Positions 3,084-3,857 of a stretch of 47,714 bases of DNA are shown in pieces. The notes beneath the pieces are model-generated. The model ran no database searches. It had not been told where the DNA came from and saw only the letters and a list, made by a program, of their open reading frames with translations. Numbering within the stretch: position 1 is the first letter of the stretch; every line of letters starts with the position of its first letter. Position numbers and translations under genes: made by a program. Where the stretch lies: the IMG/VR virus record IMGVR_UViG_2541047681_000007; one strand, written 5' to 3'. The stretch is from a virus (Duplodnaviria > Heunggongvirae > Uroviricota > Caudoviricetes).

Positions 3084-3857
3084 ATGGATATTACTGAGTT
3101 TCCTTCTGGAGTAATTGAACACCTTGGCTGGTATGTATACCGATTGATTGATCCGAGGGACGGAAGCACCTTCTATGTAGGGAAAGGCAAAGGTAACCGC
3201 GTATTTGCCCATATGCGCGGTGAAGTGGCAGCGACTGATGATGACGAGTTACTGAGCAACAAGCTAAAGCAAATTAGAGAAATAAGGTTAGCAGGACTTG
3301 AAGTTATCCATGTCATCCATCGACACGGAATGACTGATGAAAAGACGGCGTACGAAGTTGAAGCAGCACTTATTGATGCCTACCCTGGGTTAACGAATAT
3401 CATGAATGGTGCTGGCAGCAATGAATTCGGCGCCGCGCATGTCAAAGAGTTGATAGCAACATATCAGCCCGAAACCATAACATTTCATCATAAAGCATTA
3501 ATGATATCCGTTAACAGAAGTGCAAAGGATTCAGAGCTTTATGATGCGGTTCGATTTAGCTGGCGCATTAATGTCTCTCGCGCCAGCCAAGCAGAAATCA
3601 TTCTTGCTACTGTAAGGGGGATCGTTCGAGGGGTTTTCATTGCTGATAAATGGCTCAAATCAACACGTGAAAATTTCCCTTCGTTGAAATACTGGGACGA
3701 GGATCCTGACTTTGAGGCAACACAAAGTTCGCGCTATGGTTTTGAAGGTCGAGAAGCCCCACCTGAAATAGCAAATCTTTATCTTGGAAAAAAAATACCA
3801 GATGAATTAAGAAAAAAAGGAGCTATGTCCCCGGTCCGTTACTCACCTAATTTTTGA
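3084..3857 (+). CDS. GIY-YIG nuclease-domain protein with uncharacterised C-terminal domain
   Basis: N-terminal WYVYRL...[10 protein letters not shown]...[11 protein letters not shown]...N pattern typical of GIY-YIG catalytic domain; about 150 aa C-terminal region of unknown fold; own AT-rich promoter region upstream. Confidence 0.55.

Follow-up and report, generated by a model that had tools for sequence, protein, structure and literature searches.

The window considered here is a stretch of 47,714 nucleotides from a tailed-phage genome (Caudoviricetes; IMG/VR record IMGVR_UViG_2541047681_000007), read as one strand, 5' to 3'. The gene under study lies on its + strand, between an EcoRII-type restriction-modification (R-M) system and a block of tail fibre genes. 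It is an uninterrupted ATG-to-stop open reading frame (ORF) of 257 codons occupying exactly 3084..3857 in the ORF list of the window, opposite which there are just two short overlapping ORFs of 52 and 47 amino acids (aa). From its sequence, we identify this gene as an ordinary copy of PD-T4-3, an already characterised single-gene phage-defence enzyme that Liu et al. 2026 renamed CMoRE (PMC12923530). Liu et al. trace the system back to E. coli ECOR68, in which Vassallo et al. 2022 had first found it (PMC9519451). The finding is thus already known, the family having been discovered in 2022 and its mechanism and structure solved in 2026. The coding sequence and the regions assigned within it are as follows.

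3084..3857, + strand: CMoRE / PD-T4-3 coding sequence, 257 aa plus stop (PADLOC, PHROG and PDB matches)
3129..3413, + strand: N-terminal GIY-YIG domain (PF22945 aa 28-110, PF01541 aa 16-100), with Y17, Y19, Y31 and the putative catalytic residues R39 and E91/E93
3237..3248, + strand: predicted acidic autoinhibitory lid, D52 D53 D54 E55, four consecutive negative residues
3441..3854, + strand: predicted C-terminal modification-sensing domain, about aa 120-257; its edge is approximate, the linker being disordered in crystals

Family and domains of the protein

Every sequence-level comparison that we made places the protein in the CMoRE/PD-T4-3 family. The PADLOC model PD-T4-3 matches it over its whole length (E 7.6e-140, aa 1-256 on model positions 1-255 of 256), as does PHROG 5356 (E 5.7e-142). 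Searching the PDB with phmmer, we find that residues 1 to 257 align without gaps to two pairs of crystal structures, 9U75/9U8D (E 5.1e-171) and 9U7U/9U7Z (E 1.6e-150), both labelled there as "GIY-YIG domain-containing protein". The first pair represents CMoRE of E. coli O157:H7, to which the window protein is 97.3% identical in a residue-by-residue comparison. Seven of the 257 residues differ, namely T51A, E55D, Q169K, I172V, N197H, S200T and L201M, with the window residue given first. The second pair represents CMoRE of E. coli APEC O1, with 85.2% identity, no gaps and 38 substitutions, mostly in the C-terminal domain. The window protein is RefSeq WP_000355482.1, with zero differences to the annotated proteins of E. 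coli M10 and 2 HS-C, and its RefSeq name is still "LEM-3-like GIY-YIG domain-containing protein".

A preliminary description of the locus, made from the sequence alone, had seen a GIY-YIG pattern in the N-terminal part and had left the C-terminal part unassigned. The former is borne out by Pfam PF22945 (LEM-3-like GIY-YIG), which covers aa 28-110 well above its gathering score (E 2.2e-14, 54.2 bits against 27); with the generic family model PF01541 (GIY-YIG), the match over aa 16-100 stays below threshold (E 0.074). The latter statement still stands for two collections, since the C-terminal ~140 aa fall under no Pfam or NCBIfam model and the NCBIfam profile search returned no model for any part of the protein. 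It is out of date in that the PADLOC and PHROG models span the whole protein, this region included, as do the crystal structures, and the region corresponds to a domain that senses 5-hydroxymethylcytosine (5hmC) and glucosyl-hydroxymethylcytosine (5ghmC) (PMC12923530). Among several readings, the preliminary description had also proposed a standalone defence nuclease. The full-length family match agrees with this proposal, as does the 97.3% identity to a protein shown by experiment to act, as a single gene, against T2, T4 and T6.

Published activity, functional residues and predicted mechanism

When the O157:H7 gene is expressed from its native promoter, T2, T4 and T6 plate about 5 orders of magnitude less efficiently, and cells carrying CMoRE survive at a multiplicity of infection above 1, indicating a direct, non-abortive defence (PMC12923530). 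Both the O157:H7 and the APEC O1 enzymes are described as specific for T-even phages among the phages tested. With Mg2+ or Mn2+ as cofactor, the enzyme digests T-even genomic DNA as well as polymerase chain reaction products in which 5hmC or 5ghmC is present, whereas unmodified DNA and DNA carrying 5-methylcytosine (5mC) are neither bound nor cut (PMC12923530). A T4 with unmodified cytosine escapes. Cleavage follows the pattern CN11/N9G, leaves 2-nt 3' overhangs and requires two modified sites, and the breakdown of modified DNA extends over the entire T4 genome, with no strict dependence on sequence (PMC12923530). Two independent studies are in agreement: in the clinical strain NILS69, deletion of the native gene results in sensitivity to Tevenvirinae (bioRxiv 10.1101/2024.12.20.629700), and a Capnocytophaga homologue attacks the DNA of T4 but not that of T4-GT7 (PMC12366544).

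The structural part of the same work describes a GIY-YIG domain closest to that of UvrC, in which a third tyrosine extends the signature to "GIYxY-YIG" (Y17, Y19, Y31). The active site is capped by an acidic loop of 15 residues, located between alpha2 and alpha3; when its four acidic residues are changed to alanine, the enzyme cleaves ordinary DNA and becomes toxic. The C-terminal domain binds 5hm-dCTP in crystals 9U7Z and 9U8D, and Y127 touches the 5-hydroxyl of 5hmC through its main-chain oxygen. As reported by Liu et al., sequence and structure searches revealed no homologue of this sensor fold. Defence further needs an intact tetramer, as seen with the mutants V92S/L96S and with a deletion of the beta1-beta2 loop (PMC12923530).

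Alignment of the window protein to both crystal sequences reveals that Y17, Y19, Y31, R80, V92, L96 and Y127 are all present. The motif reads GWYVY...FYVG, with the three tyrosines Y17, Y19 and Y31 in place; the catalytic arginine and glutamate are presumably R39 and E91 or E93. The tetramer-interface residues V92 and L96, as well as R80, are identical to both crystal sequences, and so is Y127, whose codon occupies nt 3462-3464. In the acidic run, the window protein shares DDDE with the APEC O1 enzyme, while the O157:H7 enzyme has DDDD. None of the seven substitutions relative to O157:H7 falls on a residue named as functional in PMC12923530; T51 and E55 lie in or beside the autoinhibitory loop, and Q169, I172, N197, S200 and L201 lie in the sensing domain.

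From the 97% identity, we infer that the window allele cleaves DNA containing 5hmC or 5ghmC, not C or 5mC, and protects against T-even phages. The mechanism, as shown for the O157:H7 protein and transferred here by near-identity, would involve a homotetramer built as a dimer of dimers, in which the C-terminal domain of each subunit binds 5hmC or 5ghmC. One dimer would read two modified cytosines ~21 bp apart, and the GIY-YIG domains, with Mg2+ or Mn2+, would cut between them (CN11/N9G) to leave 2-nt 3' overhangs. The acidic lid D52-E55 would lie over the active site and repel ordinary DNA, so that unmodified and Dcm-methylated (5mC) host DNA would be spared. The predicted outcome is a direct, non-abortive destruction of T-even phage DNA.

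Cassette, distribution and prophage surroundings

Comparison of different prophage contexts reveals that the sequence they have in common extends from ~2883 to ~3915, and therefore that the gene travels within a cassette of ~1.03 kb. The features of this cassette and the genes around it, the latter listed for context, are the following.

2870..2892 and 3894..3916, + strand: left and right copies of a 23-nt imperfect direct repeat (repeat search; 19/23 identical, spacing 1024)
2883..3083, + strand: upstream region, conserved and moving together with the gene; homology between prophage contexts starts at ~2883, and the region holds the candidate promoter
2886..2904, - strand: 19-nt tRNA-Ser anticodon-arm relic at the left cassette edge, the reverse complement of the anticodon arm
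3877..3924, no strand assigned: interrupted GC-rich hairpin (3877..3915) and U-run (3913..3924, + strand)
1..1209, + strand: EcoRII-type endonuclease (Pfam EcoRII-N and EcoRII-C; PADLOC REase_II)
1244..2719, - strand: C5 cytosine methylase (Pfam DNA_methylase and DNA_meth_N; PADLOC MTase_II)
3927..4511, - strand: tail fibre assembly protein, tfa (Pfam Caudo_TAP, E 4.2e-44), convergent with CMoRE
4511..8047, - strand: tail fibre, positioned as in the preliminary description
8106..8705, - strand: Lom
8773..12252, - strand: ORF of 1159 aa which, by position, corresponds to lambda J

The preliminary description had credited the gene with a promoter region and a terminator of its own, and the two fare differently. 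A consensus scan of 2680..3979 found no + strand promoter matching at least 9 of 12 positions, and the promoter is accordingly not confirmed. The best sigma-70 candidate, picked by eye, is a putative TTGTGA-17-TAATAT at 3020..3048 (8/12), whose TTGTGA and TAATAT hexamers are invariant across four genomic contexts. The terminator is well supported: the hairpin folds at -20.7 kcal/mol on the + strand (z -3.0) and at -24.3 kcal/mol on the - strand (z -4.5) relative to shuffled sequence, is followed by the U-run, and is conserved in two other contexts. Lying between the convergent CMoRE and tfa genes, 3877..3924 is likely a bidirectional terminator. A simple terminator pattern scan missed the 3877..3915 hairpin because its stem is interrupted. 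In the upstream region, a 48-codon ORF at 2879..3025 was considered as a gene and rejected, as it lacks its GTG start at the O157:H7 locus and is frameshifted by a 1-nt deletion in LD91-1.

The two edges of the cassette carry further traces. The right copy of the 23-nt repeat is formed by the terminator hairpin's descending arm, and the same flanking arrangement is found in LD91-1, a different prophage; the left copy is absent at the O157:H7 locus. By a rough estimate, the chance expectation of such a repeat match in the 1.16-kb region is ~0.01. At the position of the anticodon-arm relic, the O157:H7 locus (5955-6022 of extract L002) holds a 68-nt partial tRNA-Ser that ends in CCA and is 97% identical to a chromosomal tRNA-Ser gene, and this tRNA-Ser fragment is probably the relic of an attachment site. 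Insertion by target duplication was tested with an artificial empty-site query, composed of the methylase flank, one repeat copy and the tfa flank, and this junction was found in 0 of 5426 E. coli genomes.

The terminator-derived repeat, present in two unrelated prophage contexts, suggests movement via a tandem or circular intermediate. A tentative reading, which we regard as possible but rather doubtful, is that 2883..3915 is a discrete, recombinationally mobile defence module with a tRNA-Ser relic that moved via such an intermediate, and that in the lambdoid lineage at ssrA (~242 genomes) it has become fixed beside the R-M system. If true, the two would form a two-tier island, with a type II system directed against unmodified DNA and a type IV system against hmC DNA.

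In E. coli Ceylon31 (3001-4228 of extract L004), an element of the IS4 family of insertion sequences (IS) replaces the CMoRE coding sequence directly after the ATG. This locus is otherwise like that of O157:H7, and the 200-bp upstream region alone is left of the cassette. An origin of these conserved 200 bp from an IS, raised by a match annotated as IS4 transposase, was discarded, as Ceylon31 instead shows the IS4-family element in place of the coding sequence.

The distribution of the gene was followed in 5426 complete E. coli genomes, in which a carrier is defined by at least 80% of the query 2720..4000. CMoRE is carried by 796 of these genomes, and the methylase-CMoRE junction is present in 242, corresponding to ~30% of the CMoRE copies; ~550 of the ~796 copies (~70%) have no adjacent methylase. 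Co-occurrence with Dcm-type methylases across genomes, a check suggested by the preliminary description, is therefore not observed as a rule (junction in 242 against 796 gene copies). Seen from the R-M side, 242 of the ~263 near-identical copies (at least 99% identity) adjoin CMoRE, and ~20 chromosomal ones have no such junction. These figures reflect one successful prophage lineage and not a functional dependence between the R-M system and CMoRE. We likewise rejected CMoRE as a third component of the EcoRII-type system, since the R-M genes occur without CMoRE, both in plasmid versions at 80% identity and in the ~20 chromosomal copies, and CMoRE occurs mostly without them. The R-M system at 1-2719 has ~80% DNA identity to plasmid-borne EcoRII-type systems (153 plasmid matches), and the 263 records at least 99% identical to it are mostly chromosomal.

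Outside this lineage the neighbours change. In O157:H7, CMoRE has an AraC-family regulator gene on one side and pinE on the other, where a prophage with contractile-tail baseplate genes ends; in LD91-1, its neighbours are a tRNA-Pro gene with a DinI-family pseudogene on one side and an acyltransferase gene on the other. There is no methylase nearby in either, and no neighbour is common to the three contexts (R-M and tfa; pinE; tRNA-Pro and DinI-family pseudogene). The presence of the cassette in at least three unrelated genomic contexts is consistent with a single-gene system that has no obligatory partner.

A nucleotide search of the phage collection gave no match. At the protein level, full-length homologues with 39-45% identity and 97-99% coverage are found in the same collection, in phages of 253-279 kb infecting Serratia, Pectobacterium, Pantoea and Klebsiella; an example is NC_048792.1 (Serratia phage Moabite), 6406-7161. 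Their annotations read endonuclease, homing nuclease or hypothetical protein. Such phage-borne homologues may act against competing phages with modified DNA.

The placement given in the preliminary description, with an EcoRII-like R-M system on one side and tail fibre genes on the other in the equivalent of the lambda b region, agrees with the Pfam matches listed above. In E. coli M10 and 2 HS-C, the same order of R-M, CMoRE and tfa directly follows ssrA, and their annotation shows lom and the tail tip gene J beyond the tail fibre; CMoRE therefore occupies the equivalent of the lambda b region of a lambdoid prophage. The methylase and CMoRE genes are divergent, 364 bp apart and do not overlap. 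The G+C content of the cassette is ~42%, against ~54% in the adjacent tail genes, a low value typical of acquired cargo.

Further observations concern the rest of the window. Within the tfa coding sequence, the Rfam small RNA IS009 (RF02111) has a full-length match at 3970-4168 (- strand; 225 bits against a gathering score of 117), which may simply reflect conserved tfa coding sequence. The prophage body encodes another DNA methylase at 31645-32490 (- strand; Pfam N6_N4_Mtase, E 7.6e-31), which brings the DNA methylases encoded in the window to at least three. Between the gene for a cI-like repressor (39294-39986; helix-turn-helix (HTH) and S24 peptidase) and the integrase gene (43777-44943) lie a DUF2303 protein (E 2.3e-92; 41117-41941, + strand) and a weak, sub-threshold match to YfbR-like 5'-deoxynucleotidase (42039-42593, + strand). 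Past the integrase, two genes follow within 44951-47714 (+ strand): one for an ATPase of the AAA/ABC type (594 aa), with matches to PtuA, GajA and AriA models at its ends, and then one for a D12-class N6-adenine methylase (PADLOC PD-Lambda-5_B, E 5e-124), which stops at the last base of the window. At this far end of the window, the pair may represent a second defence locus.

Alternative readings and comparison with known systems

With high confidence, we take the best explanation of 3084..3857 to be that it encodes CMoRE/PD-T4-3, a restriction nuclease dependent on 5hmC or 5ghmC, present as accessory cargo in a lambda-like prophage, at its tail-fibre end. Several points weigh against it. The APEC O1 orthologue conferred weak defence from its native promoter (PMC12923530). 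Our scan gave no strong sigma-70 consensus upstream of the gene, and reading of the sequence before the ATG revealed no obvious Shine-Dalgarno sequence. The enzyme function of the window allele is derived from its near-identity to tested orthologues, and the substitutions could conceivably shift its activity or specificity quantitatively.

An unlikely variant retains the family and assigns the protein a wider or shifted range, as a general nuclease of hypermodified DNA that would also act on, for example, the N6-carbamoylmethyl-adenine of Mu or on arabinosyl-hmC. In its favour, the Capnocytophaga homologue, 48% identical to PD-T4-3, degraded the DNA of both T4 and Mu (PMC12366544), and PMC12923530 describes plasticity in substrate recognition together with weak activity on arabinosylated Bas46/Bas47 DNA. 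Five of the substitutions relative to the O157:H7 enzyme also lie in the sensing domain. However, the substitutions are conservative, the two crystallised orthologues themselves differ at the same positions, and these E. coli enzymes, 97% and 85% identical to the window protein, are reported as T-even-specific among the phages tested.

We consider it very improbable that the gene is a free-standing GIY-YIG homing endonuclease, that is, a selfish gene cutting a specific site in genomes without the cassette, as the preliminary description had allowed. Such a reading would draw on a weak match (E 0.0022) of aa 17-149, largely the GIY-YIG domain, to PHROG 314, "homing endonuclease", on phage homologues some of which are annotated "putative homing nuclease", and on the sharp boundaries of the cassette in several unrelated prophages. 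The PHROG match stands alone, however: a Pfam search at E up to 1 returned no NUMOD, IENR1 or HTH DNA-binding module, and the C-terminal domain instead binds 5hm-dCTP in crystals (PMC12923530). No empty target site was found among the 5426 E. coli genomes. The characterised orthologue cuts modified DNA genome-wide and not unmodified DNA, a behaviour incompatible with homing into the ordinary DNA of E. coli or of prophages, and published biochemistry has already largely refuted this explanation. The likeness to I-TevI-type homing endonucleases is superficial, consisting of a common GIY-YIG fold, and CMoRE has neither their DNA-binding modules nor a specific homing site.

Least credible of all is the proposal of a functional analogue of Vsr, nicking the T/G mismatches that arise from deaminated 5mC of the neighbouring Dcm-type methylase. 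Its appeal is one of position, as the gene starts 364 bp from the methylase start in divergent orientation, and this junction is common to 242 E. coli genomes. The position is, however, not conserved, given the ~550 of ~796 E. coli copies without an adjacent methylase and the O157:H7 and LD91-1 contexts without one nearby. The Pfam search returned no match to Vsr (PF03852), and CMoRE neither binds nor cleaves unmodified or 5mC DNA (PMC12923530) and requires no partner for its defence phenotype. The resemblance to Vsr, a small nuclease near a Dcm-type methylase, is therefore superficial: CMoRE does not have the Vsr fold, and its substrate is modified DNA and not a mismatch.

PvuRts1I combines a PD-(D/E)XK-type nuclease with an SRA-like sensor, and the cleavage geometry of PvuRts1I and AbaSI is very similar to the CN11/N9G cleavage of CMoRE with its 2-nt 3' overhangs. 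Both groups of enzymes also share a specificity for 5hmC and 5ghmC, not 5mC, and a separation of sensor and nuclease into distinct domains (PvuRts1I is discussed in PMC12923530). CMoRE is nevertheless not a member of the PvuRts1I/AbaSI group of type IV restriction enzymes, as it joins a GIY-YIG nuclease to a sensor for which Liu et al. detected no homologue. Relative to UvrC and the LEM-3/ANKLE1-like GIY-YIG proteins (PF22945), CMoRE adds Y19, the 15-residue acidic insertion and a different C-terminal domain, and its role is in defence and not in repair.

The closest comparison remains that with CMoRE of O157:H7, which has the same 257 aa, two domains, GIYxY-YIG motif, acidic lid, tetramer-interface residues and Y127, and which is also found as a single gene within the accessory region of a prophage. 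The differences are the seven substitutions and the context, a lambda-like prophage at ssrA with an EcoRII-type R-M system in the window and, in O157:H7, a place beside pinE in a prophage that has contractile-tail baseplate genes. The APEC O1 enzyme shares an identical DDDE loop and differs by its 38 substitutions.

In sum, the locus carries little weight as a discovery, since its protein is a common RefSeq protein of a known family, and its main use lies in annotation: a RefSeq protein so far named after a domain can be named a 5hmC/5ghmC-dependent type IV restriction enzyme. The EcoRII-type R-M system and CMoRE would be complementary, the former directed against unmodified and the latter against modified DNA, with no functional dependence between them. 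They would also be mutually compatible, because CMoRE, which ignores 5mC, should tolerate the products of the neighbouring C5 methylase. We therefore regard the locus as a clear example of a prophage that carries complementary restriction systems side by side, an EcoRII-type system for unmodified DNA and CMoRE for hypermodified DNA.

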